Source: Atractiella rhizophila (taxonomy: Eukaryota). Taken from it: a DNA stretch of 64,000 nt. Each line of letters opens with the position of its first letter. Positions within the stretch are counted from its first letter, which is position 1. Below are positions 13,101 to 47,480 of this stretch, piece after piece. A program made the translations under genes and the position numbers. A model generated the notes under the pieces. That model was not told the origin of the DNA, ran no database searches, and was given only the letters and a program-made list of their open reading frames with translations. The stretch lies in the NCBI GenBank assembly GCA_021432655.1, contig MU271326.1, positions 1 to 64,000 on the forward strand. The letters run 5' to 3'.

Positions 13101-14220
13101 GACCTCGAAATCATCCCTTCCTTTTCCACTCACCCAGGACACACGCCTCCATTTGACTCCTTCATCACTGATTCAAAGGAAGAAGCTCTCCAGAACTTTA
13201 ACGAACTGAAGGAAGACGAGGGGGAGATCTGGATTTTTACGGATGGCTCGAGGACAGAGGAAGGGGTAGCTTGTGGCCTGGCTATGACGAATCCAAAGAC
13301 GGCGGCAGGATATAGGCTTAGCAACTACGATGACAACACAGTTTTCGAAGCGGAACTCATGGGCATTGATCGCGGCCTGGCGTTGAGCATTGCGCTCAAT
13401 AACTCACGAGGAACACTCTCCTCGGTCCGTATATTCACGGATTCCCAGGCAGCAGTCAAGAATTTGTCGAAAAAACCCAAATGCAAACCGGGAATCGGGA
13501 TTGTCCTCAACATCATCAAATTGGCCAACAAATTTCGAGACCTTCCCGGTATGCTCCGTCTCCCTTCACTGGATCCCTGGGCACAACAACATCAAGGGCA
13601 ACGAACTCGCAGACACAGCCGCAAACAAAGCCACAGATCCAAAATCAGCTCAAGGTCACATCAGAATCCCACGAAGCCCCTCCGCTCTCAAAGCAATCAT
13701 CACCACCGACAAATTCATCCCCAAGGTACCCGCCCCTCCAGTCTCTTCCGGCAAACACCACCGCTCCTTAGCACGGCACTTATCCTCCGAACAGACCTTC
13801 GAAATGCTAAAGGAAATGCCACGAGCACAGGCATTGATCTTCGTCCAACTGCGATCTGGTCACATCTCTAACAACAACTACCTGCATCGAATAGGGATTG
13901 CGGAAGAACCGAACTGCGACTCCTGCGGCAAGAGGGATACGGTCACCCACCTCTTTTTTGAATGTGAGGAGCATGAGGAAGAAAGAAGAAAACTTAGAAG
14001 GAGACTTGTGAAAAAGGATGTTCGTTTCAGATCCCTGGACGACCTGCTGAGCGAACCGGAGGCGACGCAGGCGGTATGGGAATTTATTAGACGGAGCGGG
14101 AAATTCAAGTTATGGATCACAAGGGTGCAGAGGGTTTTGGATAGAAGGAAGGCAAAAAGGAAACAATCGGCGGAGGCAAGAGGAGAAAAGGACGACAGCA
14201 GGGAGGATTGGGAAGATTAA
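10180..14220 (+). CDS. LINE ORF2: AP endonuclease, reverse transcriptase, RNase H, CCHC finger (frameshifts near 13040 and 13540)
   Basis: ILIQEP, GDFNLHH, TIDLIF, SDH; YRPIALL, LDVKGAF, GLAQGSPLSPIL, FVDDI; IFTDGS, IFTDSQAA, HWIPGH..GNELAD; CDSCGKRDTVTHLFFEC. Confidence 0.95.
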
Positions 14221-14613
14221 AGACAACAAGTTACGTCCACATTTTTCACTTCCGAACTGAGGCACCTTTTGCAGGAACCCAACGCACGACGGAGGTCGGA
14301 ACTCATCCCACCTACACACGGGTCCCCAAGGAGGAACACAATCCGCCATTCAGCATCTTCTAAGCATAATTTATCTCACACAAATAGCCATCGCGATTCA
14401 GTAACCCCCCACTCGGTCTTACTTCTACTAGTGCCATAACATTGTAAGGGGATTGTTGGGGGCCTTTTTCTTTACACATTACACTTATACTTCGCTTAGT
14501 TAACCCATTCATGGCCAATTTCGCCTCGTAAACCGTGTTTCTTTTCAATAATATGATATCCCCCAGAATGTAGAGCTACATTGACTATAGTCTGACAGCT
14601 CTGAAATATGATC

Positions 14614-14638
14614 ACAACAACAACAACAACAACAACAA
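14614..14638 (+). repeat. (CAA)n tail of the LINE
   Basis: ACAACAACA run; the same tail ends the LINE fragments at 27231-27246 and 31925-31946. Confidence 0.9.
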
Positions 14639-18689: not shown

Positions 18690-20967
18690 AACTTGTAAAG
18701 AAGCAGACAAAGCTGGCTGCCACTGGAGACACAGTGACAGTATCCGAACAGTTTTCACATGGGGACAGGACATTTGCGTCTCGAGTCTATCATGTCCTTT
18801 GGTGCGCTACGAAGGCCCGACCCAACAGTAACACAGGCGCTAAAAAATGTTCAGTTCTTTTCGTTGGGTCTTGACGGTTGGACATCACCAATGGGATATT
18901 CTTATGTGGCAGTTCTGCTTTATTACTATGACAGCGGCAAGATGAGACATACGGCATTGGGCTTTGTAAGGTTTGTTTTTCATGAATTGGACGGAGCATT
19001 TCTGATTCAAACTGAAGGATGGCGGAGTCGCACACAGGCTACAATCTCGCAAAGAACATTTATAACCTTGTGGTAGAATATGGACTAGAAGCTAGAGTAC
19101 GTTATTTCTTTTCATCTAACTACAATTATTGAGTTTAGTCTTGGATTTTCTGTGTGATTGCTGACAATGCCTCCAACAACAACACTTTCGTAGAAGCTCT
19201 CGCGGATTATCCAAGCATGGCTGCTTTTCAAGGGGAGAAAATAAGGGTGCGATGTTTTGACCACATATTGAATCTGGTATGTGATTTGCTTGCCTTTCCG
19301 GAATGTGAGCTCATCTGATAGATAATTTTTAGTCGCTTTGGAAAGCCTCTCACTAAGAGGAGTACAAGGACAGGAACAAACACCGTTGAACCAGATGAGC
19401 AAGCCCTCACAGAGTTGGAGCAGGAGCTTGCAGATGAGGTCGCGGAGGCACTGGAAGGTGAAGTTAAGTCCCTTCTACTCATTAATATGGTGCGATCATG
19501 ACATATTCCCAGAGCGGGGGAAGTTTGCATTTGAAGATGGTGTGGTAGAAGGAAGTGGAAAAGAGATTGCTCAGAAGGAGACCCATGGGCCTCGTCCTAT
19601 ACACGTACCTGAGAAGGATGCAAAGCAAGCTCGCTTTACACTCACCAAGGTACGTTCAACCCAACTTTACCTCAAACTGATCTGATCTGATCGTGAGGAA
19701 GCTTACTGCTGTGTCCAAATGTGCTCGAGACGGCGACAAGATCTCGGCTGCTCTGGTCCGAACCATCAAAAATGCAAAGGAGCTCAATCCTGATGGACCA
19801 TTGAAAGAGGTAGATGCAGACCTGAAGTTGATTCGACACTGTCCTACAAGATGGAATGGTAAAGATGACATGATTGAGAGGGCACTTAAAATGGAGCATG
19901 CTGTAATTCAGATTTGTGCTGATCCGACACTCAATCTGGAGGTCTGCAGGCTCACCGGAGCAGAATGGAAGATCCTGAAGGAAATGCGGCCGACTCTTTC
20001 CATAAGTATCTCTCTCTCCAGCCTTGCATAACTTGTTCTAACTTTCAAATAGATGGCGAAGAACCTCACTTTGGAATTTTCCAAGATGGACACACCAAAC
20101 CTTGGAGAGGTTGTCGTTCTCTTTACCAACATTGCGATGTACCTCTCTCACATTTATGAGGAGTACCAAGACCCTGTCACAAAAAGTGACAGTCAAACCA
20201 ACGGCGCATAAAGCCATTCAAGCTGGCGCTCAGATTGCACACAAGGTTTTGGACAAGTACTATCTGAAATGTGCTGACCACTCGCACATCTACATTTGGG
20301 CTCTACGTATGTCACTTTGTCCATGATTCTTACTGACGGGGTTTGGTAGTACTTCACCCACAGCGGCGCATGAAGTATCTGAAGATGATAAACTGGGACA
20401 AAGAATGGATGAATGATGCGGAGAAGACTCTCTATGACTTTTGGGATAGATATTACAAACCGGATGTTGCCGACGCTTCCAACGAGACCGTTGCTGTGTC
20501 CTATCAAGAGGTATTCATTTTCTGATTACAGGTGCAATGGTAACGCATAGGGAGTAGGATTTTGATACTCTGGCACAATATAACCCTCAGCTTGCCGCTT
20601 CAGGCATAGAAAGTGCATCCAGTGGCGCTGAGAATCCTGTCAAGATCTTTATCCACGCCACAGCGGATCCATTACGAAAAGATCAATGGAATCTGGGTTT
20701 CGAAGAAATTGATCCGCATCGGTATCACTATCGACTGTTCAAGAAAGCCTCCGACAACATTGAGAAGAGCTTCCATCGATGTGCCATGGACATATGTGCA
20801 GTACCAGGCAAGTCTACTCAGATTCAAGTTCTTGAATGAGTTCCGGGTTGGCTAACATGACCACCAGCACACACACTGCTGACATCGAACGCAGCTTCTC
20901 GGACGGAGGAGAAATTGCCACTTTCCTTCGGCTTTTGATGAAAGATGAGACCTTTCGCTCACAAACA
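18690..20967 (+). mobile_element. Degenerate intron-containing hAT transposase gene
   Basis: SLGLDGWTSPMGYSYVAV, RCFDHILNL, IRHCPTRWNG, VLDKYY, LHPQRRMKY, TADIERSFSDGG; ends at an assembly gap. ACGG/CCGT-rich DNA at ~17760-17930 may be its left subterminal region. Confidence 0.85.
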
Positions 20968-20992
20968 NNNNNNNNNNNNNNNNNNNNNNNNN
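20968..20992. other. Assembly gap (25 N)
   Basis: Run of N. Confidence 1.
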
Positions 20993-21197
20993 GTCCTCCA
21001 CCCTTATAACCCACACAACCGTCGGCACCAGCGACGCATCCATGTTACACGATTTCGTGACCTCCTCTGGCTTCTACTTCGACTCCTTGAGTTGTACGAC
21101 TTTAAGCGGCAGCAACAACTTCATTAACTTTCGCTGCAGACGGAGCTTGAAGGGGTTGTCAAATATTCCTTCGCCTGCTCCTAGCAATAGTAAGCCG

Positions 21198-21462
21198 ATG
21201 CGACCTGGTTCGGATGAGACCTAGTTCTCCAGTAAAATCCTATGCGCCCTAGTTTGAGTAAGAACACCGATGCGACCTACTTTGCCAGTCAAAGTATTAT
21301 GCGACCTAGTTTTCGTGCATGCGACCTAGTTTGCCAAAGTATTATGCGACCTAGTTTTCGTACATGCGACCTAGTTTGGCAGTCAAAGTATTATGCGACC
21401 TAGTTTGCCAAAGTATTATGCGACCTAGTTTTAGTAAAGACTACGTCCACGCGACCTAGTTT
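21198..21462. repeat. Irregular tandem array of ~11 ATGCGACCTAGTTT cores
   Basis: Core recurs with a few reused linkers (GCCAAAGTATT, TCGTGC/TCGTAC, GCCAGTCAAAGTATT). Confidence 0.9.
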
Positions 21463-23572
21463 GCGCGAAACGACTGCCTACTGGCGTAGTTGCCGCGGTT
21501 TTGACTAAGATTATTTAAGACCCTTATCTTCGCTCTTTAGTTTCAGCAGGTTGAATCTTTCAACTCCTCACCGCTAGGCGGAAGCCAGAAGCCATTTGAC
21601 CAGCGGGGGTACCTAAAACGCGTTCGCCGGCCTCCGGCGTTCGCTTTTTACCAAAATGCGGAGTTAAAACTCTTTTAAACGACGGTTTTTCGTCCAGTTT
21701 TGACCAGCTGCTCAAAATAACGGCTGCTTGAGGCTGGGGAACCCGCTGCCCAGACGAAGCATGGGAATTCCTGAACGAAACTCGACTTACCATGCCATGC
21801 CATGCCCTGCCCTGCTGAGTCTCACGGCAAGGCACTCAATATCGGCTCACCTATGCAGCATAATGCCGCCGTAAACGGAATACGAATTTCTCAACACTAA
21901 CAGCCACTATAATTAGTTAAACAAGTATTCTTGTCTACTACGTCGGAAGAACTGTAGAATTGAAAATCAAAGGAATAAGTTTTGGCGAGGTTTATCGGTA
22001 AAGACCGTTTTACATTTTAAAAACAGACATAGTGCACTAGAGTGGAGTTGATAACTCGTCTAAAGGGAAATAGCGGTCAGCAGCGGTTCACAGTTTAAAG
22101 TTGGTTCAAACATAAATTATGTTCAGTTTTTCCGGTTAAGCCGTTATGACACACCCTAGTCCTTGAAATTGCCCTAGTCCTAGAAATTGTGATGTATAAT
22201 TTCAGAGGGTTTTGACATGGTTAGAGAATCTTTAAGACCTAAGTCTAAGAGGAGTGGGTATGCGTGTAAAGTGAATATTTGTGACTCTACTAATGACGTG
22301 TAGAGACATTCAATAATTCCTTTTATTCCACAACATGTCTTATCACTAAAAGACGTTTTTATATGTGTTATAGGGTTTAGAGAGAACGGGGTTAAGTTCA
22401 CATTCCAGATAGGTTAGTACAGGGCTTTACAACGACACCAGTCAGTTGTTGAGCAACCTGCCATTGGACAAACTCACCTAACATCCCTCCTCTGTTCCCA
22501 CGCGTTTTAGGCGTTTAAATTCAATTTCACGCGTTAAACTGTGCCAAAAATCCAGTGCACATTGTTCTTGTGCTTTGAGCCTGGTAGTTACGGCGACGTC
22601 AACAAAACTTACCGTAACTAACAAAGTCTTGCACTGCGCTGAAAAGAGAAAGAAAAAGTTAAACGAATAGTGAGGGATCGTAGGAGTTGTACGGAAGATT
22701 CTTCTTTTTTTGGGGGAAGAAATTGGTGGGTTCTCAATCGTTGGGTTTTTCTCTTCCTAATACGCCTCCGACATCTTTAAATAACCTCCTCCGTTCTCCT
22801 CCGACTGTCCTGTTTCTTGTTCTTCACACGATAGAGGAAAGCACTCGAGAGTGCAGTTATAACGATAGGTTTACCGTTTCCCCCGAAATGGATGTACTTA
22901 ATACCCCTGTAACTCCTAAGCCACAGTTCCTCCCAAATTCAGCGTAACTTTCAGTAGTTGTGGACTCTGAAAATTCGCTTCCTCTTCTTCGACCCGAACA
23001 TTCGACCGAATCTACCCAACCTCTAAGTCCAGAAGGAGAGGTGGCCTCCCCGAACATAGACCACCACTTCTTCTAATATCCTGCCTATGGCCCGTTCTTT
23101 ACCATGAGGGCAAAGTACTTCGCCTTGTTTCGACTTTAGTTCTCGAAAGTCAGTTTAGGAAACCTGGGTTTCGCACGGTCTCGTAAGTTAGCTTGTTTAC
23201 AGTTGAGCATAAAGTTAGAGTAACTCCTATGGTACAGTTCTATACCATAGTAGACCCTATTACAACGTTTATACCTACTCTTTCCGGAGGTCAATCCTCC
23301 TCCTGCCTTCTACCCGTCCGCCGCTCAATATCCACGACGACTTTCCTTTTTCAGATAGCTCGTTTCAGCCTATTCGACCTCGACCAGTGTGAGTAACTTA
23401 CACACTGACGTTCACCTCCTAGTGAGAGAGGAGATAAGTAGAAGAGACCATTTGCGAAAGTCTTTCGGACCAATCTCCTAAATTGCCTCCGTGTTTTCTT
23501 AGCCTATAACACGCGAGAATAACGATGACGAAAGAGTTGTGAGTGTGAAGAAGAAATCACAGTCACCAAGAC

Positions 23573-26500
23573 TTGCCTCATCACTTCAGCCTCGCGACTT
23601 CGATTGATTCCCTCCCTTCCCGAGGATTGGTTCACGCAGACCCTACCCTCCCACGGTCTCCTTCCACCGAGAACGTTGATCTCGTTAATCGAGTAACTAG
23701 GAGCAGTATTCACGCAGCGATGAGGATTGTGGGTTATGATGTAGTTCACTCTTCTCAGCATCATACATCTCATCTCGACCAGGGCGACATAAACCCTAAT
23801 CTTAGGACTGCCAACGGTAGCAGCGTGAATGCGGGAAATGGTCAGAAGACTGGTCAGCTCGGAAAAGTGGTTGACGGGAATTTTTCAGCTGTTGAGACCT
23901 TGTCTGATCCCTCATCACAGCAAGGTCACCACTGTCCTACCACGGATTCGGCAGATGTGAGTTCTTAATCTCCAACACCCAGTTTCTCAGTGTTGAATGA
24001 TAGAGGCTTGAGTGCACACGCGTGCATCATGTTCCCGAAACGGAGAGGCAAAAGCAGGAGCGTGAGCCACGCGTATCGGTCAGTATTGGGCTATCTTGCT
24101 CGAGAACGTCCTATTTAACGTGGAATTTATGAATACCCAGACGAGGGCTCTGGCGGCGAAGAAAGAAGCTGAAGAACTCGAAACGCTGCTAGCTCGTGGT
24201 TCTTCGACTCCTCGATCGCCTCCACATGTCGACCACCAGGAACAGTCGCATGGAATCCGTGCATGCAACTCTACAGTGGGGTTCGTTCATATGGAAAAAC
24301 TCGTGAGGACCAAGAGTGCAGACCCGTACCCAATGGAGAGGCCGGAGAATCACGGGGCGTCGAAAAGGTTACCTGGGCTTAGACGCCACAGTGGCGAGAC
24401 GCAGGGGGTGGAACTTATGAGTAGGATCGAAGCAACGAATCATTCAACTCCCCTTCGCGATTTAGGACGTGGAGACTTTTATAGACGTAAGACGACGAAC
24501 CTTGGAAACCCTAGCCAAGTGCAAGGAGTGGACGACGACCTCCCCAAATCACTCGTTTCAATAATGAAATCGGCTCCGTGCAACAGAGTTTGTCTCATAT
24601 ATCCAGCTGACATTGAATTACTAACTTGAAACATGGCAGCATACGATGGAAAGTATCTACAGATGAAAATTGACCGTGGTCATTTTCCCATCTTGGCCCG
24701 CATGAATAGCTTCCCCAACCTCGTGTGTTTGTTAGCGCCCCCATTCTGCGCCATTAACTTCATTGCTTAGCTCTCTGCCTCTTCGGCTGCATTGGATTTG
24801 AGACCTGAATGGTCCGCAGATAGTGGCGCAAAACAAGTCCAGAAAGCGTCCATTCCTGCGCTCCCATCCGACACCGCTTCTGCTCCTGCTGCGAACGGAG
24901 CCATCAATCCCTTCGGAGGCTCACCTGTGTGTTCCATTCGGATTTTGGCACAACCTGGTCATCTCAGCGATGTTACGCATTCGGTGACCACTGGGACGCG
25001 TGGATCGGTAATGAAGGCCGGTAGCGCATCTCAAAGGATGTTGCCTATGATTGGATTGGCGGGAGAGGACAGACGCTTGCACTCATTGACATTCGATGTT
25101 AACAACACTGCCGGCAAGAGCATGTCGGTGCCTTCTTCAACTTTTGAAGCTGACACCAATCATTTGTCTGATGTGCGGATCATTCTCAACTTTTAGCTTG
25201 CTTTCCGAAAGCTGACGTTGTTTCGTCATAGTCAAGGATCGATGGAAGTTCCAACTCTCGATTCAACGCTTACTGTATGGATCCGATATCAAACGAGGGC
25301 CAATCGTATGACCAGGACTCCCATGATGCCAAACAGAGCAGACAGGACATCCCCAACAGTCCTGGACGCGAAATGAAATGCGACCAATGCGCTACTCTCA
25401 GGCTCGAAGATCTGCAGGGCAGCATGCATGCGCTTTGCAAGGATCAATTCGTCTGCAGGTATCTTCAAAAGAAGTTGGAGGAAGGTAACCCCGAGCATCG
25501 CGATATGATCTTCCAGGAAATCTGCCCGCACTTCAGTCAATTGATAACGGACAAGTGTATGTCGTCCTTTTCTACCAGAGATCTTAGTTGACAACATCTG
25601 GAGCAGGTGGCAATTATCTCGCCCAGAAACTATTCGAGTTTTCTTCCAGCAAGCAGCGAGAAGCCCTCCTCGAGCATATTTCGAATGAACTGGTCTCCAT
25701 TGCGTTGAACATGCATGGAGCTCGAGTTGTCCAGAAGATCATGGAGCACCTTTCCACCCAGCACCAAGTTCAGATCCTAATCACCGCTCTTAATTTGAAT
25801 GTGGTTGCCTTGATTCGACACTTGAGCGGGAATCATGTCGTCCAAAAGTGCCTCCATCACCTGTCTCCAGAAAGACAACCAGGTTTGTTAGTCCTTCCGT
25901 CGGATCTGCGAATTGATTCCTTTGTCTCAGTTCATCTACAATGTCGTGGCTGCTAACTGTGTTGAAGTCGCGACCGACCGCTACGGATGCAGTATCGTTC
26001 AGCGATGCATCGATAATGCAACAGAATGGCAAAGGATTCAACTCACCGAGCAGATCATCAACCACTCGCTCACGCTGGTGCAAGATCCTTTTGGCTCGTT
26101 TCGCCTTGCCCTTCAAGGATTTATTACTGACACTGAGGAATAGGCAATTACACTGTTCAGTATTGTTCGGACCTTTCTAATGCTCGCTTGACGGAGGCCA
26201 TTATTCGCCAATTCTTGGGCTACATTTGCGCTCTGTCTGTCCAGAAGTTTAGCTCGAATGTGATTGAAAAAGCCCGGCTCCCTCTTACCTCGATTATGCC
26301 CAAGCTGATTGATGTGCCGTATAGTGGATTCGCGTTGCAGATCCCGTGGGAAGGCAGGCTATTCTCGGTGAGATCCTGGCGGATAATAACGCCGTGAAGT
26401 TGCTTCAAGATTCATTTGGAAATTATGTTTGTCAGACCGCTCTGGATTATGCCGATCTTGATCAACGAACCGCGGTATGTCGATACGTGAACCAACTGTG

Positions 26501-26877
26501 CGCTAATGAGAGGACAGCTTATCGCTCAGATCAGACCCATTCTTCCGCAAATCATGTGTACTCCTCACGGCAAGAGGATTCAAAGAAAGATTTCCCGTGA
26601 CAGCAACGGCGGCGTGAATGGAGGCGGAGGATTCCGTCACCATGCTCGCAAATACGTAACGCCTACTGAAGGACTTGGTGGCCTCTCTCTTCCCATTCAC
26701 CAGCTCGTCTCGAGCCATCGTCTTCCCAACTCCTGCTCGCCCCTATACGTCTTTGCGGGTGGTCACCAACATAATCACCCCGTCACCAGTGTTCTTGGGT
26801 TCTCGAATAAGACAGCAGGGAGGATTGGGAAGATTAAAGACAACAAGTTACGTCCAGATTTTTCACTTCCGAACTGA
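23573..26877 (+). pseudogene. Pumilio/PUF RNA-binding protein, Puf4/Mpt5-like, with 8 PUF repeats at ~25400-26600; frameshift and disrupted last exon as assembled
   Basis: Repeat signatures CRYLQ, NYLAQ, ARVVQ, NHVVQ, CSIVQ, NYTVQ, SNVIE, NYVCQ and TPHGKRIQRKI. An extra A at ~25872 breaks PEDNQ|FIY. 5' exons uncertain. The native 3' end appears displaced to 30234-30303. Confidence 0.85.
26729..26810 (+). repeat. 82-bp direct repeat, copy 1
   Basis: Identical to 30152-30233 (ACTCCTGCTCGCCCC...GGGTTCTCGAATAA). Confidence 0.97.
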
Positions 26878-27246
26878 GGCACCTTTTGCAGGAACCCAAC
26901 GCACGACGGAGGTCGGAACTCATTTCACCTACACACGGGTCCCCAAGGAGGAACACAATCTGCCATTCAGCATCTTCTAAGCATAATTTACCTCACACAA
27001 ATAGCCATCGCGATTCAGTAACCCCCCACTCGGTCTTACTTCCACCAGTACCATAACATTATAAGGGGATTGTTAGGGGCCTTTTTCTTTACACATTACA
27101 TGCATACTTCGCTTAGTTAACCCATTCATGGCCAATTTCACCTCGTAAACCGTGTTTCTTTTCAATAATGTGATATCCCCCAGAATGTAGAGCTACGTTG
27201 ACTATAGTCTGACAGCTCTGAAATATGATCACAACAACAACAACAA
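26811..27246 (+). mobile_element. 5'-truncated copy of the LINE (ORF2 end, 3' UTR, CAA tail)
   Basis: Aligns to 14194-14638 with roughly 16 substitutions counted by eye. Confidence 0.97.
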
Positions 27247-27249
27247 GTC

Positions 27250-28680
27250 TTGACTTTTTCCACCAAATTTCAATTCATCAGTCATGTCACGGATCATACA
27301 TTGCATTCATGACAAGTCATGATTCTCAGGTGATTATCATGAGACTTCATGATTCAGTCATGAAGCAGGGCAGGAAAGAGTAGTTCTGATTGGTTTGTAT
27401 GTGTGTATATGTCTACTTTGTCTTAAAGTAATCAACAAGCTCTTTGTCTGTCCCAGAAAGCAATCCAGCATCATAGCAGGTGCCTAAAGCCATAGCAGCA
27501 CGCAATGAATCTTGTGATAGATTGTGCCGGAGGCCGGTGATCTGAAGTCCTCCCGCACTGAAAGCGCGTTCCGCATCGGTACTGGTCACTAAGGAAGGGT
27601 CACCAGAAGGCAAGGAGTAAGGAAATGGTACACACCAGGGCAGGAGAGCACAGCTATTGCTAGCTTCGCAAGATTAGGATACCGGCTTCCTTGCCGTTCC
27701 CCATTCCACCAAGCCAGTACATCGAAGTCCTTGCATGTCTTCTCCAGGTCAGCTTCCAAGTACCGCCTGATCTCATCATATTCCGCTGGTAATCTTTTTG
27801 ATATGCAAACCGTTCTTCCGCATCAGAGTCCTCCTCATCCAGCAGATCAGTTACAACTATGGTCTCTGTGGAAGGAGTAGGATGGTAGATCTTGAACTCC
27901 TCATATAGCAATGCCCGAATATCTTGAATCCAGGAGGTGAGCCACACTGTGTGTTCGTAGTACTTAAGTTTGTGGTAAGGGTGGAGTACTAGAAGTTCAC
28001 ATCAGCTCAGTAATAATAACCAAGAGAGAGGAACCCATTGCCAACTTATACATGCTTGTCTCCTGACAAGCTTTTGAATAGTATTTATTAAGAACTGCAA
28101 TCGCGCGACAAGCACCCAACAGAATAAACAGATTCGCATTTCGGTTAAGCTTGATGTTGCGAAGGTTATGGTCAAACTTATCAAGATAAGGGATTACATC
28201 GGTAAGGAGCACCCGTTTCTTGGTAGATAGCTTGACTGTGGCTTGATAGAAAGGCTGCAGTCCAGGCTCAGATCTTGCACAGATTAAATCGAAGGAATTG
28301 ATAAACCTTGAGAACATCCTGCAATTCACCTAGGACTTTCCATTCAGGTTCCATCACTTCATACTTCTTAAGTTTGAATGAGCTCTGTTCTGTAAGACCA
28401 TCGAAAGCTTGTCGGAGCAGGAGAGCTCGTTCAAGGCAGAGGAAGAGACTGTTCCACCAGGTGACAACATCTCGGATGGGAAGTCGCGCATCTGTGAGGT
28501 CCTTGTAAATCATTCCACAAGACGCTGAAATTCCATCTTCATCAAGCTGCCATTAACAATCTTGTGAGACAGTTCCCAAATCTGCAATGTCTTAAGCAAA
28601 AGAATACATGGAACATGTGGCATGTTAAACCTTGGCATTGACAGACATTCCTAGAATAAGGACAGACAGAATGAATCAAA
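27250..28680 (-). mobile_element. hAT transposase C-terminal remnant with TCATGA-rich subterminal repeats
   Basis: LPIRDVVTWWNSL, EWKVLGELQDVLK, VLNKYYSK, STDAERAFSAGG...RHNLS; TCATG/TCATGA motifs clustered at 27280-27365. Confidence 0.88.
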
Positions 28681-28819
28681 GCTCTAAATGCCGGGATGGT
28701 GAAGGGATTGATGAGCGAGAAAGGAAGGGAAATAGAAGGTTGCTCCCAAGACAGTGAAAGAGATGATGGCGTGAGCCTTTAAGAAGCGTCCAGTCGAGGA
28801 CGCAATTACCGAAACTGGC

Positions 28820-30151
28820 TTAGGGGAGACGGGGTGGGATTTTACACTGAAAATGAGTCCCGGAACCCTTCTGCTCGGTACCTGGTGTGGAACGAATGGG
28901 GTCATCCTCTCCCAGCAGAAGGGAGGCAGAAAGAGAAGAGTTTTCTGAGTCGGCTTTCGTCGCTTCGACTGTTGGCTCAGAAGGCTCATACAAGTCCCAC
29001 ATAATGTAGTCCATCCCAATCGCAGAGACACCTCGAAAGTACCCTAAATCAATATTGAAAAATTGATCCATCATGCGGCAAGAAAACTAACGTGGGCTCG
29101 AGTAGTACCAGACAATACAACCTTGGATCATGTACTCGATATACTTGTTGTATTTCGCGACTGCGGCATCTACCTTTGGATCCCAGGTCGGTAACTGCTT
29201 CTTCAGGTTCAGATAGTCCTGGACCCGCTGAGCAGTCATGTCCACAAGCATGTCAAGCGCCGTCTGCAGGTCGACTTTATGCTCCGCCATAATGATGAAG
29301 ACGAGATTCTGGTAGTCCCCATCTGCTTGTTCCTTGTTGAAGGAGCAGAGATCATTAGGCCAAGTAAGAATGTCGTCGGTCGCATCCGACATCGCCTTCA
29401 TGACAGGATGCTCGAAGACATAATCGGGCACGTCCAGGTCGACAGAATACTCGGTGATAGTTTTTACGAGACTTGAGCCGATGGTCGCTCGTCGCATCAG
29501 GATGAACTCTTGGACAGAGTAGAGTCGCTCCTCCTGACGCAGGGTGCCTTGTTCCATGTGCGAGTTGCTGTGAAGGTAATAAGACTCGATGAATCTGCGG
29601 ACGGCTCCCGGACTCGCTGTCTTCTTCATGCGGCGTAACAAGTTGAGCGGATATTAGGGATGAGACGGCAACAGAAAGAGAACGCACTGCCAAAGCATCG
29701 AAGCATAGGGGTACTCAGGTTCAGGGCCGTCTAGTTTATTGATGATGCTCCGTTGGATCATATGCCCTAGAAATGACCTGTAAACACCTCTGTAGGGTGT
29801 CGAGTTGGCACCTACTCTTCTCAACTTCCTCTGGACGATTTGCCAGCTCGCCTTCCTCCGCAAGGTCATCGGCCTGTGTACCATTCAGAATACGGAAACG
29901 AAAGGCTCTCGCTGGGAAGCCGCTCACCGCAAATGCCCAGAAGTAAAACATTAGACAAGTTTCGAGATGCTCAAGATCACAGTCGGGAAAGCTGATTCCG
30001 GCAAAAAAGTCGAACTGGCTTGCCAAAAACTTTTGTTTTTCCTTCTCGTCGTACATTGTATACCTGTTTACTATAGTTTAGGCGGATCAGAACTGGACGG
30101 GAGCAACGCACTTGGAAAACCACTTCGTCATTGTCTTGCTAGCCTCTGGGT
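28820..30151 (-). CDS. Fungal class I sesquiterpene synthase, intron-containing, lacking its native N-terminus
   Basis: Spliced motifs FPDCDLEHL, FYFWAFA|ADDLAEEG (Asp-rich), RRATIG, WPNDLCSFNKEQ (NSE), WYYSSPR|YF; four GT-AG introns of ~50 nt. Coding similarity stops at the 82-bp repeat junction; the C-terminal frame is uncertain. Confidence 0.92.
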
Positions 30152-30303
30152 ACTCCTGCTCGCCCCTATACGTCTTTGCGGGTGGTCACCAACATAATCA
30201 CCCCGTCACCAGTGTTCTTGGGTTCTCGAATAACGTTGCCGGAGTCAATCTTAACGGCCTCAATTGTCCCAACCTCAACAGTCACAGTTATCCGTTCTTT
30301 TAA
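30152..30303 (+). repeat. 82-bp direct repeat copy 2, followed by the displaced native 3' end of the PUF ORF
   Basis: The PUF frame continues GFSNNVAGVNLNGLNCPNLNSHSYPFF-stop (30303). Confidence 0.85.
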
Positions 30304-31404
30304 AAGGTGTCAGTGCTCGGAATGGCACCTCTATCCCCAACGCGACGGTACATTTCTCCTTTCCGCTACCACCGATTGGAGTGACCGAATGAAATTGTCG
30401 AATTGCCTTGTGCGCATGGGTTGCTGTCCGTAACCTAATAGCTTGATTTGGACACTTCAACCTTTCGCTGGTCGAGCGAATCGGTTTTGATAATGGATAT
30501 TTGTTATTACGGATTGGAATGAATACATATTCACGCGTTTACCTGCCTTATGTACTTGCAAAGAAGGAACATATAAGGAGCATAGAAATATAAAAACGAG
30601 AACAAAAGAATGTTATTCAGAACAAATGCCATCCAAGCGAGATCAAGCCTCACGCAAGTCGTCTCGCTTCGCCCCTCACTTCCTGGAATTGTGGCGCAAC
30701 AAGTTTGCCCAACGACGTGCTGTACATGTTTGAATACTTACCAAATTCCGACTGGCAACACAAAATCGAAACAGGAGACCCGTCATGGCAAACTGGTCAC
30801 CGCGAGGGTTATGCGGCCGCAAAGAGAAAAAAGTTTTGCGCTCTGATTTTGAGGAGATTTGTGGTGCACTTAACTTTTGGACCAGTTTTAACGCCGACGG
30901 ACGCCGACCCTCGGGGCGACAGGTTGCTACATTCACTGTAAAAAGAGACTGAACGATTTTCCGTCCGCGAACCTTACCTCCCCGGCCCGAAATTCCCCGC
31001 CGCGGAGTTAATTATATCCGTCGTGTGACTAGATATCAACGGTGCGAGGCTCTAGTCGAATAGAAGAATTACACTGACAAATCATTCAAAGTAGAAAGTC
31101 GAGGTCTGGTTGCACACTTTTGATGCTCGGACAGACGACCCAACCTTCGTTGTGGAGCTGTCACAAAGCGTTTCCAGACCAGGTTGCCATCGACGCCACG
31201 TGCAGGGTGAAATCGGAGCATCGCAGGAAGCGAGAGACAGAGATGGTGAAGGAAATGGTATTAGCGGTGCAATACAAGAAGGAGGGGTAGGTTGACTGGA
31301 GCTGGGAGGCATTCATGCTATGATAGTACTTCAGCTCCAGCGGGGGTTCGATTGATCAAACGTCGCCCAGGAAAGGCCTTCAACACCAGCACCCTTTACT
31401 ATGT

Positions 31405-31946
31405 ACGACGAAAGAAAGAAGCTGAGGGTTAGACTAAGGAGGAAGGACATTCAGTTCATATCTCTCAGTGATCTGTTGAGCAACCCGGAGGTTTCGGCCG
31501 TGTGGGAATTTGTGAGGAGGAGTGGGAAATTTGCGATTTGGATCAAAGGGCTCAATGGTTTCTGGATAGGAGGAAGGGGGACAGGATGAAGAAGGGGAAA
31601 GGAAAAGAGGAGGAAGAATGGGAAGAATGGGAAGAATGGGAGGACTACATTTTACCACGAGGCTTCAACACAATTCGGATGCTACCAATATTTCCACCTA
31701 GCCATCGCAACTTAGCACAACCCTCACTTGCAATCACACATCATGTCATGCAATCACTCAATGGAGACCCTTCCTTATTTCTTATCTACTTTCAGTATTG
31801 ACTTCTAGTGGATATCCCTACCTCACGCTTAAGTTCCAAGGGCTGATATTTTTCATTACACTTTGATCACTTCCCCAAATGTAGAGCTCCATTGACTATA
31901 GTCTGTATGCTCTGTAATACGATTACAACAACAATAACAACAACAA
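31405..31946 (+). mobile_element. 5'-truncated LINE of a related, diverged subfamily
   Basis: ERKKLRVRLRRKDIQFISLSDLLSNPE..AVWEFVRRSGKF parallels the ORF2 C-terminus; shares the GACTATAGTC 3' motif and CAA tail. Confidence 0.9.
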
Positions 31947-32109
31947 GGACATGAGTAACAAAGGGAGAGACATACGCTTGAAGGGACGGAGTCAAAAACC
32001 AAAGGCCCGAAGACCCGGATAAAGAAAAGCTGTCCTAATAACCAACAGGAAGCTCGTCAGAACCCATAAATAAGAATAAAAAGCAAAAAAGACGCAGCTA
32101 TCGACATCG

Positions 32110-32565
32110 TTACCCCTGACCATCATCCGGAGGACATGTCTTGTGCCTTTTCCTCGGAATCATAACCGCCACTCTCTTAACACCAGGAATACTCTCCAAC
32201 GTCTTCTTGCAATCAAGAGTTTCCTCATCTGGGGGATTTATCGTCGGCTTCGAGAGGTAATAAAGGTGTTCATTATCAAGTTGCCCGACAAGTCCAACAT
32301 ATGTGAGTATCTCGGAAAGGGCAGACGAACTCGAAGACATCGAAGGATGCATTGAGTGGGTAAGTTCCTTGCTCATCCTCTGGGGAGAAAGGTCGTTAAC
32401 GCTGGAGTCATCAGATATGTCTGCAGATGGTTGAGGCCCATGGGGTCGGTATGGCTCCTGGGAATCGGCGATGACGGAAAACGCCAGAGGTTGATAACTT
32501 CGATTGGAGGAGACGTGAAGATAAGTGTTCTCGTTGTACTTGAGAGCGATTGGCGGATTGGACAT
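32110..32565 (-). CDS. Small hypothetical protein (~151 aa) resembling a kexin/subtilase pro-domain
   Basis: Intronless ORF; YVGLVGQLDNEHLY and VKRVAVMIPRKRHK recall kexin propeptide segments (recalled similarity, not searched). Confidence 0.5.
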   Translation of the reverse strand: MSNPPIALKYNENTYLHVSSNRSYQPLAFSVIADSQEPYRPHGPQPSADISDDSSVNDLSPQRMSKELTHSMHPSMSSSSSALSEILTYVGLVGQLDNEHLYYLSKPTINPPDEETLDCKKTLESIPGVKRVAVMIPRKRHKTCPPDDGQG

Positions 32566-33228
32566 CTTTGACGTGCTTTTGACAGTCGCCCGCAAGTGTT
32601 CATAGTTTGTGCTGAAAATTTGAAGGTCCCTTAACCTTTTTGTCTGCGGCTATCGCTCCAGGGTCGGACCGTCTACAGCGATCATGTTTCAAAATTAAAT
32701 CAACAGTGAATTTTTCATAGGAGGAGCAGAGGGATATCACTGTAAATGTAGTTTCCCATCAGTAAAATGTCCTTTCTCCTCAATTCTCCGCCCAGAGGGG
32801 CCAGGAGGAAGTGTTCACCGGCACTGCTTTACCTTACTACACTTTACGCTTTACCTTATTTTTGTTGATTTTGGGTTGAAATGTTCATAATATTATCCAA
32901 AATAATCATCAGCCAATCCAATGTGTATGGCCATCCTTGTGTACGGGTACGGAACTGGCGGCTATTTGCCACCTCCAAAGCTCTACGGATACTGCATTTT
33001 CCCATGCGATATGGCCATAACATATGTGTACGGATATAGGTGGCAGCGGTGTCCCCCACTTCCATTTTCGCTGTGTTTCATTACTAAATGCGCATTCCCA
33101 GCTCTTCAACAATACACCACTCGACGCCACGACATACCTCCCTCCCACCATCATGTCGGTTAAGAAGCATTTGTCAGAGCCAGGTCAACCCACCTTACCT
33201 TCGCTACAATCATCATTCTGAACAAGAC

Positions 33229-34207: not shown

Positions 34208-36923
34208 CATCAGCAAATTCCCTGGCCCTATGGGGACCTATCATAGGAACCCTCCATAGAACGTTCCAACGAATCTCATATGGCGCTATGTGGCGCTATG
34301 CACAACTATGGGTGACTCATGCTTACTCGTTTCATGGATGATCCAACTCGGATACAACTTTGACTGAAGTGCGATGCATATGCATCATTTCAAGAGACTA
34401 GCAGGTACCTTGTGTCTTGTCCATGTCTGCATTCTGATTGAGAACCCACAACCTACTGGCGAACCAGAATGACTCACCACATTCTGCCTGATGCTCCCCC
34501 CAGGGGCTCATGCCAAGAGGTAAAAAAACCGAAGTTCAACTTGCCGCAAACTGTCAACGTCGCCTTCAATGATAGGGATGCACAACGGGGCGGGACGGGT
34601 TCGGAACCCATGCCACGTTCCCGTCTTTTTTGGCGTGCGCCTAGCACAAAGGAACCCATCTCTACCGCAAGCATCTTCGACGTGACCTAACAACGTGCGG
34701 CAGGCAAGAGGAGGGCATTACCGTTTTCGTCCGCCAATACGTCAAGCTTCCAACTGTGCCTGCTAGCTGGCGTGGCAGTGTGCCTGGTATGATCAGAAGA
34801 TTGAAGATTTCTCTGTGTCCACGGTGTGTGACGCTGCCTTTCTAATGTAAGTCAAACCACGTCCAGAATATTCTCACCGAACAAGAGCTGACTAGTTCCA
34901 CCAGTGCCTCCCTGATCCCGACCGTTGATAAAAGAGTGCCATGTTCTTTGGACGACTTCGTCTAATTGTCAGTCTTGCAATATAGCCCCATCACAGCCAG
35001 CCAGACAAATCAAATTGGTGGACATGGTGCGGAGGAATAACGAAGAAGGAACGGCAATCAGTGAGAGAGAGAGAAAGAAAGGGGAACAGGAGGTGTATGT
35101 CTATCCATTCTGCCGTCTCCCTGTGCCAATGTTGACTCGATATTTTCTTCATTATAGAAATTCAACCATTCCCGGTTATGATGAGCTGGAAGTCTTAAGG
35201 GCCACCGTTACAACCATATGACGGGACAAAGACTATGTACAGTTGTTTTTCTCTTGCTCTTCTCATCCTGATTTTAACTCAATTACTTGTTGTCTTAGAC
35301 GACTTCGTGGCTTTACAAGACGTGCGAGGGGCTCAGGAAACAACTCTCCAGCAGGGATGAAGATGGTGATTGCCCATTTCATCATTACCAACTACCTTCG
35401 TAAAAGCCAACCACCATCTTCCCACACCTCTTCTCCTTCCGAATCCTTCAAGCACGTTCTAACGTCTGCAGCAACACCACTCACATATTCAGCAAAGCTT
35501 ATGCAGAAGGCAAATCAACGAGCAAAGGTGTTTCACGAGGATGAGGATCGGCAACCGATCCTTTGGTTCAGTCTTCCTCCATTGGACTGGGCGGAGGATC
35601 CATTGGAGATTTATCGTGTGCGGTCGAAAACAGATATGAAGGAGTGGTCTCAGATGGCGAGGGACATCCTCTCTATTCCAGGTCTGTCTTTCGTTACATT
35701 CACCCTTCTCATCACATTAGTGCAAGCTCACAAGACTAATGATTGTTTATTACATGAATGCTGTTCTGTGGCTGTCGAGCGTGTCTTCAGCGGAGCACGC
35801 GACACAATAGGGATCCGCCGTGCACGCCTCAAACCGGACATGATTCAAGCGCTAATGGTCCTTAAGGCTCAATCTGCGATTGGAGAGAGATCGGAAGGCA
35901 AGGGAACTAAAGGCTGCTTTGGCTGTGATTGCAGAAGGGAGCTGAAATGTTTGTGTCGATGTTTATGTCGGAATTCTTTGCTCAGAACTTTTGCTCTTTG
36001 ATTTCTTAAACTCATTCTGTACTTTATTTACATTATTTAGCTCAGTAAGCACAACATTACAAGACGTGAGGCTTAAACCCGTTATGACCCCGTTACGTGT
36101 TCTTTCGACGTGCGGCCCTCACCTTGGATGCCACCTCAACGCAACCGCACGCCTTTACTTGACGTGAAGAAGCTCACGTAGCATCCTCCACCCGTCACGT
36201 TACCGCCCGTTGTGCACCCCTATTCAATGATGTTTGTCACATCAAGTTTACTCTCCCCTTATCCTCCCACCTTCCACCACTCTCGCAGTCCACACATACC
36301 AGTCCAACAACTATAGCTACTTTTCTTGACCTCCAGCAACTCGAGCAGGGAGAGTTGCTCTCACTGTAAGTTCACTCCTTTCTCACTCACATGCCCTTCA
36401 AACAGTCATCGTTATCTAAGTGTGTAATTGGATTAGGGACAAGAAGCATTTATGGTATTGAGGTGAATACTATGTGAAGAGCAAGGGATGGTTTTAAAGT
36501 GAATCCCTTAGTGTGAGGAGGTCAATATCTTTGGCATCCTTGTTCCGTGAATCACTGCAATGGTTCAACCTGCCAGGTCCCGGTGAATGCTTCAATAGAG
36601 TCTTTTTCCGTGACCCTGGACACTTGGTAAGTGTGTGGACGATACAACCGCCCTTTTGATAGTGTGACAACAATGTGTGCATTACTGGAGTATATTTGTG
36701 CAATATAATGATTTTTAAATTTTTAAGTATTTTATAGCATGAGCTTGAGAACAGACCAATGAGACAGTGAGTCACAGGCATTGTGCCATTGTGCAATATG
36801 GCCCATAGGGCAGCCCTTCCTATGGCACTATAGAGGGTCTACCATAGAGCCTAGGTGACAAAATGCATATGAGCTATGATAGGGCTTATAGCACCATAGA
36901 CGCTGCCCAGGAAAGTGCTGATG
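34208..36923. mobile_element. Non-autonomous TIR element with CATCAGCA termini, hosting a nested hAT
   Basis: Left CATCAGCAAATTCCCTGG vs right (reverse complement) CATCAGCACTTTCCTGG; CTATG/CATAG subterminal motifs at both ends; GA on both flanks. Confidence 0.6.
34573..36222 (+). mobile_element. Internally deleted hAT element (1650 bp)
   Basis: TIRs TAGGGATGCACAACGGG / CCCGTTGTGCACCCCTA; perfect 8-bp TSD TTCAATGA; dimerisation motif MARDILSIPG..SVAVERVFSGARDTIGIRRARL. Confidence 0.95.
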
Positions 36924-37079
36924 GATAGTAGAGGATTCGATGTATCTCGTATGTTAGCGTGTAAGAGGGGGTTGTTTTCAGGTTAGCAGGACCTAAGCAC
37001 TTTAAGCCACCTGTACCGTCACCGCCATACTTTCAAATGTTGGAGACGGACAGTCTGACAGACTAAGACCAAATCAGTT

Positions 37080-37340
37080 TCTCTATATCTATTCCCCATC
37101 AGTTCTTGGCATGAGTCATAAGCCGCACTTTTGAGCCCTCACCTCCCTTACCATGCACAATAGAATCAAATAAATTATACCATCATAACTATATGCTTGC
37201 CCCTTTCTGAAGCTGTAAGGAAATTTTATTCTGAACGGGATAAAAAAATGCGTTCATACTGGACTCGAACCCTTACATGAGTCACTGTAAGGTTCAATTC
37301 TGCCCCGTGCGAGCGGGTTAGCCGCCTGAGGAACAACTTG
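37080..37340 (+). mobile_element. Mini (non-autonomous) Helitron
   Basis: 5' TC, 3' CTTG followed by T; shares TCTTGGCATGAGTCATAA..CGCACTTTTGAGC with the copies at 45668 and 59636. Confidence 0.8.
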
Positions 37341-37513
37341 TATCCCTTTAAATTTGTTCCTAGCCACTCTTCCCTTTTGCTTCAGAGCTTCAGCGTCAAT
37401 ACTGCATCGATATTTTCGATTTCCTTGTACCACCAATCACTGCTTCCGCTCACCTGGCGAACACAACGAGCTTTGACCGTACCCCACCTTAAGACTGGTC
37501 AACACTAAAGAAT

Positions 37514-40091
37514 ATGGACACTCCAACTGCGCCGCCACCCGGAACGCAAATAACAAAAGTTCGGCCGATCAGCATGGAAGAAGGTACTGAACACAGACAC
37601 ATCACTCCACCTCCTACTTTTGTTGTCACTGCGCCATCCGAGGCTCCTTCCAACAAGCGGAAGGCAGATGATCCAGGCTTCACCCCGAACAAGCAAGTTG
37701 CAGTCTTTACCCCTGTAGCACGATATCAGCAGCTCACCAGTCGCATCGAGGCTGAATCTCCTCCTATCCTGGTCTCAGGTCTGCACCCAAAGGCGGCCAA
37801 GGGACGTTACCGCGGTCTGGCAGAAAAAGTGAAGTTTCAGAGGCAAGATTGGCAGAATGAACGCACGATCAAAGGCTTTATGCAGCGCCTTTACAAGGTA
37901 AGAATACTTGTCACATGTTGACATAATGAATGTGACGATATCTTCAGGAGCTTTTGCCGGATTCAGATCTTAGATATCATGTAGTGAACAGACCCCTGCA
38001 ATTCTGGGGCAACGTCACCCAAAGGGATTCCCTCAAAATGGACGGAATGGTGACTTCCATCAAATTCAAGCCGAGCCCCGTGTATTCCAGTGCAGTCTGT
38101 GGGGTGGAAGTCAAGACTGGGGAGAAGAGTCAAACCGTGCAGGGGAAAAGGCAACTGGGCCGTGGCGCTGTCTATCCGCTCGTGGCGAGACCTCGCCATT
38201 TTTTCTGGGGTCTCTTAGTCGATGGAGCTCTCGACAAGAAGAAGTACTGCTGGATCGTTAATGCCCATGGAGGCAGATGGCAATCCGATATGCAGGGGTT
38301 AGAAGAGAACTATCAGGAGTTTTTGGAAGGGTTGGCAACTCTCGTGGAAGGAGACGAAAAGGAGACTGGCTTCCTCGATATCTTCGATCACGACAGCAGC
38401 TTGGTTTTCAACTGGAACTTCGCGGCACTGTCCTCCCCAAGAGTCCCTGAGAGCATCCTCGACGGACCAGTCACCGCCATCACAACTAGGATTCAAACTA
38501 GATCTAGAAGGACGTTTGAAAGATTGTCAAGTTGTGGGGACCGGGTTCCGGTCCAACCTTGTTGCAGAGGGGTTATTCCAAAAGTGCTCGATCACGGGGA
38601 GCGGGACACAGGTCTGGGCGTGCAGGTTTGTAGAAGGGACGGGATACGGCATCATCAAGCATGTGTGGCTTGACAAAACTCTCCTCGCAAGGATGAAGGA
38701 CACCGTCGAGCATTTTATCGAGTGGAGACAGAAGCTCGAGGAAGGCTCCTTGGATTGTCAGAGACATTACTGGGAGTGGCTCGAACATGCTCCGCGTGTC
38801 CTGCTTTCATTTCCTGAGTTCTCAACGAGCAAGATATTCGAGAAATGCATGTCCTGGGACGAGAAGAAACAACCGGAGTTTGAGAAGAAGGAGCTAGTCC
38901 CTGTTCTAATATTCCACTCGACTATCGGCCTTCCGCTTGGGGCGGCAACCAACCTTGACGAGGTGCTCAACACATTCATTGGCCTTCTCAGACGTGAGTC
39001 CCCCGCTTTGTCTCGGTACCCGCATCATCTGATGAATTCCTACAGAGTTAGCGACTCTGAATGATCAAGACTTCGTCCATCGCGACGTCTCCTATACGAA
39101 TATTTTCATGCACAAATGGACACCAGAGCAAAAAGAAACCGGCACAACCATCGGTTGGTTAAACGATTTTGATTTCTCTATCAACAACTCTAAGCCAGGG
39201 GACACGGGCTTCGCTGCTGGTGAAAGTGGCCACGACCAAAACGACCATGTTGAGATATCCGTGAGTAATGTCTCAAGCCGCAGTATTTGTTAATGTTTGC
39301 CAAGGGGACGTTTATTTTCCTCTCTCGATGTGCCTTGCAGGCGGTCCTAGACTTCATGTACCCCCAGAGCAACGAGATGGGTGACGACGAGGTCAGCGAC
39401 GAAGGCACGGTCATGGACGACAACAAAGTGAAGGATCAGGATAATGTGGGAGATCATGCCAGTGACACCGAGGACGACACGGCGGAAAATAACAAATCCC
39501 CGGATGTGAAGCCTTCCTCGCAGCCTCCCAAGCTTGCCCGACCTCTGTACCGACAGAACATCATGGACGACGTGGAGTCTGTTCTTTTCTGCATGTTTTA
39601 CTTTTTCTGCCATTTCGTTCCTCAAAAGAGGGGACGAACCGGTCCGTTCCGCAAGCGAACTTGGCACAAGAGGGAGACGTCGATGGCGCAAGACTCCGGA
39701 AAGATCTACAGCAACAAGGACCCATCTTTCATCTTCGGTGTTGAACCTCTTCTTCAGGATGATCCCTATCCGCTTGCAGCTTGGGAGGAAGCCATCAATG
39801 TCGCCCTCGATGCAAAACTGATGCTTCTCTACGACGGGATGTCACAAGAAGATTTCAATAAGAAAGCCGCCGTGCTTTTAGGTGCCTACGACGAGGATTG
39901 GAATTGGAATAGAAAGAAGGTGCTAGCAGTACTCTGGGAAGTCTCTCAACCACTTTGGCTTAATCCCGCAGACATAGGCAAAGCGAATCCTTTTTCCCAC
40001 AGGAAGTGTTCCGAAGGTCGAGGTTTGGGACATGGTTAACAGAATGGTAAATGCGTTGCAACGGGGAAAGAAGAGTTTCAAGAAGAAATAG
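37514..40091 (+). CDS. Fungal-type protein kinase (FunK1/Pkinase_fungal) with N-terminal nuclease-like segment; frameshift near 38495 as assembled
   Basis: SITGSGTQVW, IIKHVW, FVHRDVSYTNI, IGWLNDFDFS, GTFIFLS, DDVESVLF; upstream KMDG...GVEVK; ~50 nt introns. 3' end approximate. Confidence 0.85.
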
Positions 40092-40272
40092 TGTCTGAAA
40101 TGTTGGTTGCAAATAGGACAGAAGATTTCAGTGCAGAACAACATGAGGGCACCTCAGGGTCATCGCTGTGCTCCCAAGGCACGATTTCATCGATGCTTAA
40201 CCCTTCGATACGTGATTGCCTTTCAGAGAATTCTAAGTTATTCCAGTCAGTTCTATCTTGGCCTTGTAGATA

Positions 40273-40764
40273 CAAGTCTGTTTGTACCCTCGTCCCTTGG
40301 CATCACCCCTCCCCCTCCCCCGCCCCACCAGAAGCTTTGCCCCTTAGACCCCAGCCTCTCACGGCCACTGTGTGGAGCTCTTGCCTCTGGTAGCCACTGC
40401 ATGGGGCCATGCCTTTGGTGAGCACAGACTCACCATATATGCATGGGTTTTGGTATGAATCTATATCATTTCATTGTAGGTGAGAGCAGATCGATGGTGA
40501 TCAACTGTGTATCATTACAGAGCCTAGCCGAAGGTTTGAGGTTTTATAATAGGTGGTAGCCTCAATGATATGGGAGAGCAGCTCAGTGATGATCAACTGT
40601 GTATCCTAAGGTAGATTCGTTCCTGTCGGGAGACAAATCGTCGAATAAGCTGATCATTTATCATGTCAACATCAACATTCCAGGCCATAAGGACCATGTG
40701 CTCTTGAAAATATTGCCTCAACTCGGCTGGGTTGACATCTTGTGTTGTGGTGCTCAGTCCAGGG
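40273..40764 (-). mobile_element. Helitron 3' terminal fragment (helicase remnant plus CTTG end)
   Basis: 40605-40760 is an inverted homologue of 55561-55715, and 40435-40475 of 56275-56320; ends CTTG|T. Truncated at a hAT-like TIR TAGGGATGCACAA at 40765. Confidence 0.85.
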
Positions 40765-41299
40765 TAGGGATGCACAATGGGGTGTGGCGTGGCATGTGTA
40801 GGGGGTTGTCAGGGCGGACACAAAGATGTGTGAATGAGACGTGTCAGGTCATGTACTGCAAGGACAATGCTAAGCGGAAATCCTGAGAGAACAAACTAGG
40901 TCTCTCAGAGGCATTGTTCTTGCCTATATACATAAAGGCTGCACAGCTACAAACAATAACTCTAACTCTATCTGAGGTGGGGCGCAAAGGTCATGTGATA
41001 TGTAGGGCAAAAGAGGTGGGGAAACAGAAACACAAATAAAGCAACACAAACATAGATCGAGCCCATGACTCTAAATAGACTAAAATAGGCGATCTTGTAC
41101 TGGACTCGAACCCTTGAAAGCAAGAAAATAGCCACCTCTGTCCTTGCAATTCCACTGCAGCAGCCCTGCAATGAACCAAATTCCGGCGCAGCAGCCATGC
41201 CCAGAATTGCCCTGCATACGATTTTTTTTTAGCACGGTTTGATCTTTTCTCTTTTCTCTTTTCTCAGGTTATGTATCAAAAGTTGGCTTTTGCCATTCA

Positions 41300-47325: not shown

Positions 47326-47480
47326 CATATCAATGTGGAACTCTGCATCTCCATCAAATCAGTCAAATACCTCTTCAAATACATCTACAAAGAAAATATG
47401 ATTAGGCACAAGCTGGTCTCCGTAGCACCAGAGGTGATGTTAGGTGGTGGATGAGAATTCAAGAGTACTTAGATGCTAGA

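Follow-up and report, generated by a model that had tools for sequence, protein, structure and literature searches.

How did part of a terpene synthase gene come to lie, together with pieces of two transposable elements, inside the last coding exon of a gene for a Pumilio-repeat (PUF) protein? The question is raised by a 64,000-nucleotide stretch of the Atractiella rhizophila genome (assembly GCA_021432655.1, contig MU271326.1, positions 1 to 64,000; hereafter, the window), in which the PUF exon is interrupted between two direct repeats. As the initial annotation of this DNA had reported, the repeats, at 26729-26810 (+) inside the last coding exon of PUF and at 30152-30233 (+), are identical at 82/82 positions, and identity over such a length is far above chance for 64 kb. 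The block of 3341 bp between them (26811-30151) consists, in this order, of the 3' end of a long interspersed nuclear element (LINE), a non-coding end of a hAT transposon, the C-terminal half of a hAT transposase (−), and a terpene synthase (TPS; −). The reading that we favor, tentatively and as less likely than not, is that the block was truly inserted, once and very recently, by copying from a DNA template during repair or through a template switch. Two other readings, an assembly artefact and transduction of the 3' flank of a LINE, have to be weighed in earnest against it.

The host gene (23562-26810, +; PF00806) is transcribed and spliced, and two of its introns, at 26094-26143 and 26272-26324, are apparently of the GC-AG type. 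The window PUF exon is 100% identical to an Atractiella rhizophila protein. With the block in place, all the PUF repeats are intact, and the last 23 residues are swapped for 22 LINE-derived ones that end at a stop codon at 26875-26877. The public gene model P0060 ends in this LINE-derived tail and misreads both GC-AG introns. The displaced original end of the coding sequence is located at 30234-30303 (+), where it encodes 23 residues and a stop, and is followed by a 3' untranslated region (UTR) that extends to at least 30896. As had been proposed, excision of the block plus one repeat restores the gene, yielding an open last exon that ends at 30303.

For comparison with the window, 12 sequencing runs were found to hold part of 24000-31400; four of these (X1-X4) were compared over 21470-33000, and X5-X12, with a share of 0.06-0.09, were left out. 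X1, a DNA run, and X2 represent one sample, S1. X3 is spliced and therefore is an RNA run; its organism label and year differ from those of S1, so that X3 may come from a different isolate. In S1 (X1 and X2; 23622-30924), PUF occurs as two haplotypes that differ by about 2%; one of them has a 15-bp in-frame deletion at 26608, and one S1 haplotype has a different 3' end in PUF. The host gene itself is a fast-diverging second copy, identical to the paralogue P0061 at 285/397 residues and still transcribed.

The initial annotation had suggested that an empty allele be looked for, and such alleles are present in both X3 and X1. In record 17 of X3, 30152-30896 follows on the PUF exons, with a single mismatch; the exon lengths of the window place 26729 at position 997 of this record, exactly where the listed piece starts, so that the mRNA holds a single copy of the 82 bp. 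The DNA run X1 contributes a second, diverged empty allele, in which 26769 is joined to 30221 with 38 letters in between. Over 50 residues, moreover, the C-terminus of P0061 shows 58% identity to the frame at 30148-30297, the paralogue having preserved the tail of the empty allele. The empty PUF site is real and ancestral, and the 82 bp behave as a target duplication. In metagenome contigs, an exact search with a 26-base part of the repeat gave 0 matches, and of the 104 pattern matches for TPS relatives 0 were confirmed.

The left edge of the block is the 3' end of a Tad1-like LINE (26811-27246, +), comprising the last 27 bp of open reading frame 2 (ORF2), the 3' UTR, and a (CAA)5 tail at 27232-27246. 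This piece is 96.3% identical over 436 bp to positions 14194-14629 of a near-full-length LINE of the same family, located at 8190-14638 (+), which contains an ORF1 with CCHC knuckles, an ORF2, and a (CAA)8 tail, and is frameshifted. Its ORF2 encodes an endonuclease, a reverse transcriptase (RT), an RNase H-like domain, and a C-terminal zinc motif, the RNase H (E 2e-4) and zf-RVT (E 4e-5) matches both being below the Pfam cut-offs. An ORF1 with CCHC knuckles, an AP endonuclease, RT and RNase H, and a short tandem-repeat tail together make up what we take to be the Tad1-type anatomy, which the element at 8190-14638 displays in its predicted domains. Its 3' flank differs from that of the block piece, and the earlier statement that this copy is not the donor stands. 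The block also does begin in a LINE, as had been claimed; that its start coincides "exactly" with the first base of an element truncated at the 5' end is not evidence in its own right, because every block beginning within a LINE looks so. For the tailed LINE copies ending at 14638 and 31946, a convincing target-site duplication (TSD) was found in neither of the two, and for a separate TSD flanking the LINE piece of the block, the longest match is 5 nt. An 8-nt match at 31443 was considered as a TSD and rejected, as it lies inside the LINE homology. Besides the piece in the block, the window holds three LINE pieces of related families, at 8190-14638 (the element described above), 31405-31946, and 60812-about 61700, two of them ending in CAA/TAA repeats, and the region 31076-32033 is covered by the RNA run X3 with 0 mismatches.

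The LINE piece is followed by the hAT remnant. Its non-coding end (27247-27412, −) carries clustered TCATGA/GTCATG words, presumably subterminal repeats, and the C-terminal half of the transposase (27413-28643, −) has introns and two frameshifts, with the Dimer_Tnp_hAT domain (PF05699) recognized at E 4.8e-10 in one of the five frames scanned. No inverted partner of 27247-27330 was found within the block; one 14-mer with 1 mismatch lies at 33222. At 28643/28644, the hAT breaks off midway through its coding region and gives way to the 3' flank of the TPS, which has the same orientation; the TPS contigs of X1, X2, and X3 carry other flanks at this point. The break may reflect either a deletion or capture of the TPS by a hAT at the donor locus. 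Pack-type or hAT gene capture resembles this arrangement in that a fragment of a host gene adjoins a mid-cut hAT in the same orientation; hAT elements duplicate 8 bp of their target, whereas here there is one hAT end, no inverted-repeat pair, and an 82-bp duplication. Elsewhere in the window, further hAT transposase remnants and short repeated ends occur in both orientations (34566-40789, 19681-20967, 37096-37334, 45662-45821, 59380-59642, and 55561-56337).

The right part of the block consists of the TPS 3' flank (28644-28819, −), to which record 13 of X2 aligns from 28644 and record 20 of X4 from 28693, and of the headless TPS itself (28820-30152, −). The match to PF19086 (E 4.4e-36) and the presence of the metal-binding motifs DDLAE and NDLCSFNKE assign the predicted product to the class I terpene synthases. 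All five introns are kept (30064-30111, 29874-29927, 29767-29815, 29643-29687, and 29044-29091). The (CAA)n tail, the hAT remnant, and the antisense, intron-keeping synthase of the initial annotation are thus all in place, with the qualification that "sesquiterpene" is only a family label and the product only a predicted one. The nearest solved structures, 7ofl, 8gr5 (AcCop4), and 8gy0, are distant relatives (E 4e-39 to 8e-31), from which the product is not inferable. With the basidiomycete class I TPS (PF19086), the block copy shares the fold family and both metal-binding motifs; it differs from them in being truncated and in its broken splice acceptor. The exons contain no frameshift; however, codons 1-30 and the promoter are missing, no in-frame TPS ATG is present before 30131, and the fourth intron (29643-29687) has AA instead of AG at its acceptor, so that its retention introduces a stop. 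Given the loss of the promoter and codons 1-30 and the broken acceptor, the inserted copy is probably dead, and the suggestion that a working secondary-metabolism gene had been moved is not sustained.

That the synthase is clipped at the right junction, as had been noted, is borne out by the TPS sequences of X3 and X4, which continue beyond 30152 and encode there the N-terminus of full-length paralogues; the TPS of the block was thus cut out of a longer gene, which is present at another place in this species. Eight listed pieces of X4 differ from the window TPS by 7 letters and 1 gap in 1140, a near-identity which indicates that an intact, spliced gene of this TPS type exists in the species. 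X4 also has the state of the window at the listed 3'-end indels, which argues against the TPS part being noisy fill. The possibility that the single-base differences at the 3' end of the TPS are sequencing errors was rejected, since X4 has the state of the window. Three full-length TPS paralogues are annotated, which the window model P0088 matches at 254/277, 250/277, and 222/257 residues; none of the three is the donor.

The internal break at 28643/28644 makes the block a mosaic with four junctions. At the right one, TPS exon 1 passes directly into the repeat with an overlap of 1 nt and without a tail, because the TPS match of X3 and X4 stops one base inside the repeat, base 30152 being common to both; neither a poly(A) nor a CAA tail is present at this junction. 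At the left one, the overlap with other LINE copies is 0 nt. There is no N within or adjoining the block, the sole N run of the window being that at 20968-20992.

Beside this 25-N gap, the scaffold contains a proven assembly error: the segment at 20993-23562 (about 2.57 kb) is reversed without being complemented. In a Markov scan of 128 bins, 21001-23500 was the sole run of aberrant bins (five consecutive), the four others being isolated. The 30 letters by which X3 continues before 23562 are the reverse of 20994-21023, with 0 mismatches, and depth is zero over 21470-23394 in all four runs compared (X1-X4). A 163-residue frame at 22915-23403, which resembles a pogo-type transposase by its motif, appears only if the sequence is complemented without reversal. 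Once re-reversed, the segment joins the 5' part of the PUF transcript; it holds the remnant of this pogo-like transposase along with a short array of tandem repeats. The reversal was presumably made by a gap-filling program.

Under the reading of DNA-templated insertion, the last PUF exon would have suffered a staggered break, or replication would have switched template there, and 3341 bp would have been copied from a locus at which the LINE end, the truncated hAT, and the TPS already adjoined one another. Copying would have started inside the LINE and stopped inside TPS exon 1, and rejoining 82 bp upstream of the departure point would have generated the 82-bp duplication, leaving a dead TPS fragment and a PUF gene with intact repeats and a new end of 22 residues. 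The junctions would then exist in the DNA, with all three pieces adjacent at the donor and DNA as the template. Copying of gene fragments as filler DNA at breaks is described in plants (PMC3445842) and vertebrates (PMC2671141), and DNA-templated filling, according to these and to PMC9779921, keeps introns and needs no tail. Filler DNA made through synthesis-dependent strand annealing (PMC3445842 citing Wicker et al. 2010, and PMC2671141) resembles the block in the intron-keeping fragment, the lack of a tail, the adjoining transposon, and the dead-on-arrival cargo, and differs from it in that here the homology is 0-1 nt, the flanking duplication is long, and the insert exceeds the vertebrate cases of up to 619 bp. 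LINE pieces occupy about 13% of the window outside the block, so that a block end within a LINE is not far-fetched. Copying of genomic sequence from elsewhere, combined with empty alleles (X3 and X1), was found for the TPS part only.

Several observations weigh against this interpretation. A contig bridging any of the four junctions was found nowhere among the 33 pieces listed by the junction scan, beyond which the data comprise a further 721 pieces together with 151 loose ends and 9 more joints. The annotated proteins include no near-identical intact donor, the closest matching at 254/277 residues. The junction microhomology, 1 nt at the right and 0 at the left (against other LINE copies), is less than repair junctions often show, and the vertebrate repair duplications described in PMC2671141 are short, not exceeding 619 bp, and tightly linked. 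Furthermore, the start inside a LINE, in the right orientation and with the tail kept, is predicted outright by transduction and would be due to chance under repair. Three further points of this kind speak at the same time for an artefact: the proven reversed segment and 25-N gap lie 3.2 kb from the insertion on the same scaffold; each of the two PUF haplotypes that the runs reveal is empty; and on either side of the insertion point X3 agrees with the window, apart from 7 letters and 3 gaps in 3278. An orphan contig, namely, an alternate-haplotype arm of a TPS locus with a LINE at one end and, at the other, sequence common to TPS paralogues, would in that case have been slotted between two PUF contigs that overlap by 82 bp at a heterozygous spot. 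The 82 bp do overlap a heterozygous stretch of S1, where the X1 and X2 contigs alike end at 26744 and 28 letters are replaced by 38 in one allele, and both ends of the block fall within repeated sequence, where contigs break; X3 and X4 have the same 24 letters beyond 30152, so that the TPS paralogues converge there. A second intact copy of this TPS type was not found among the annotated proteins, and the summed depth of window-type TPS letters is low in S1, at about 63-93 (X1) compared with 85-142 for the PUF allele arms, although these figures are rough and depth is not copy number. A preprint (bioRxiv 10.1101/2020.05.22.110833) documents false duplications where contigs end, as well as greedy closure of gaps that no reads span. 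Nevertheless, both junctions are seamless and free of N, the TPS part is accurate when compared with X4, the window tracks one haplotype through PUF rather than a random mosaic, the assembler had no obvious source for both junction sequences, and X3 is perhaps another isolate than S1, judging by its label and year. The public models P0060 and P0088 were considered as support for a filled allele and rejected; they match the window, very probably derive from this assembly, and for that reason count for neither side. On balance, we regard misassembly as a serious possibility, though less likely than not.

That a Tad1-like LINE retroposed a 2.9-kb 3' flank including most of the TPS in one event, without a tail and with an 82-bp duplication, as the initial annotation had proposed, we consider unlikely. 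A read-through RNA of the donor would have extended 2.9 kb past the tail through the antisense hAT and TPS; reverse transcription would have started from its far end at a nick in PUF and stopped 436 bp into the LINE, the second nick lying 82 bp away. The order and polarity of the pieces are those predicted, a LINE truncated at its 5' end coming first, then its tail, and then DNA foreign to the LINE, with direct repeats on the outside; the LINE family has an endonuclease and RT; other copies extend further in the 5' direction and are followed by different 3' flanks; and antisense introns would be retained, although the keeping of the TPS and hAT introns fits an RNA or a DNA template, because all of them are antisense to the LINE. 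In the same respects, a 5'-truncated LINE with tail and non-LINE flank as a unit between direct repeats, the block recalls the 3' partnered transduction of human L1, for which PMC12350158 gives transduction in 466 of 5311 insertions, calls the 3' cases by a second poly(A), and reports a canonical median TSD of 21 bp. Here, by contrast, there is no second tail at the right end, the element is a repeat-tailed Tad1-like LINE instead of a poly(A) L1, and the duplication is four times the usual length; in PMC2104539, fungal LINE chimeras have 14-bp repeats, and LINE TSDs are generally 10-20 bp. In target-primed reverse transcription, as outlined in PMC2881922, it is at the right junction that the cDNA made first becomes attached, so that synthesis would have needed to begin within TPS exon 1, 2.9 kb past the LINE tail and without a tail. 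Repeat-tailed LINEs are thought to require their own 3' end, which the fungal MgL and Tad1 share with their short interspersed nuclear element (SINE) partners (PMC3747384). Endonuclease-independent, tail-less L1 insertions are known (PMC12350158 and PMC2881922). A donor with a longer LINE and the same flank was not seen, and X3 and X4 show no RNA cover of the hAT part, a weak point, since contigs show presence and not absence. The absence of the right-end tail and the length of the duplication, both raised as caveats in the initial annotation, are thus borne out, and the alternatives that it had allowed for, repair-templated insertion and misassembly, are each at least as likely as transduction. 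Still more improbable, and very unlikely, is assembly of the block at this site in steps or from several templates: either an hAT-TPS filler was inserted before the end of a LINE became attached on its left side, or template jumps joined the three pieces in one event. The break at 28643/28644 is not a transposon end, TPS copies in X1, X2, and X3 are flanked differently, and PMC2104539 reports double template jumps made by a fungal LINE; however, the LINE piece lacks a TSD of its own, and more events are required than in the other readings. The Magnaporthe MGL/WEIRD/Mg-SINE chimeras (PMC2104539) likewise join a fungal LINE piece to other sequence between direct repeats, but there the LINE is the 3' part, in a single orientation and with a 14-bp repeat, whereas here it lies 5' and the rest is antisense.

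A side observation concerns the TPS family in Atractiella, a member of the Pucciniomycotina. The best named matches of the family (P0066, P0067, P0068, P0087, and P0089) are from Agaricomycetes. An initial tree, built by a quick method, included 77 of 83 proteins, with 6 short matches left out; a more careful tree was built from 32 hand-picked rows and rooted on two chytrid proteins. In the latter, two Atractiella TPS group with seven Agaricales proteins (support 100/97). A topology holding the 26 Agaricomycete rows together without Atractiella was not rejected (p-AU 0.062); therefore, horizontal transfer is not demonstrated, and an origin of the TPS from Agaricales by this route is a possible scenario. 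A search of the open-access literature listed no paper on a transfer of TPS from Agaricales to Atractiella.

Other features of the window include a Copia-type retrotransposon at about 47393-54439, with integrase and RT, frameshifted and with a duplicated left long terminal repeat region (47393-48065) and a 78-bp tandem repeat at 49351-49506; an APH-family phosphotransferase-like frame of 533 aa at 2126-3727 (−); and a CCT/TCP-1 chaperonin exon at 57028-57681 (−).

Each of the candidate mechanisms is already known in kind. Among the papers listed in searches of the open-access literature, most subscription papers lying outside this scope, no case of 3' transduction by a fungal LINE was found, and the portions consulted of two papers on fungal LINEs (PMC3956500 and PMC9674265) hold no transduction case. 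If the block is an artefact, two public gene models (P0060 and P0088) are wrong; if it was made by repair, it joins the filler insertions already described. Whether repair or the LINE made it, little effect on the fungus is expected, because the inserted TPS is probably dead and the PUF repeats are intact. If, in contrast, transduction by the LINE were true, a stringent, repeat-tailed LINE would be able to begin reverse transcription at the end of a foreign RNA and to take kilobases of host sequence along. The locus would then provide a fungal case of transduction that involves a secondary-metabolism gene, and a possible route for the spread of a small TPS family.

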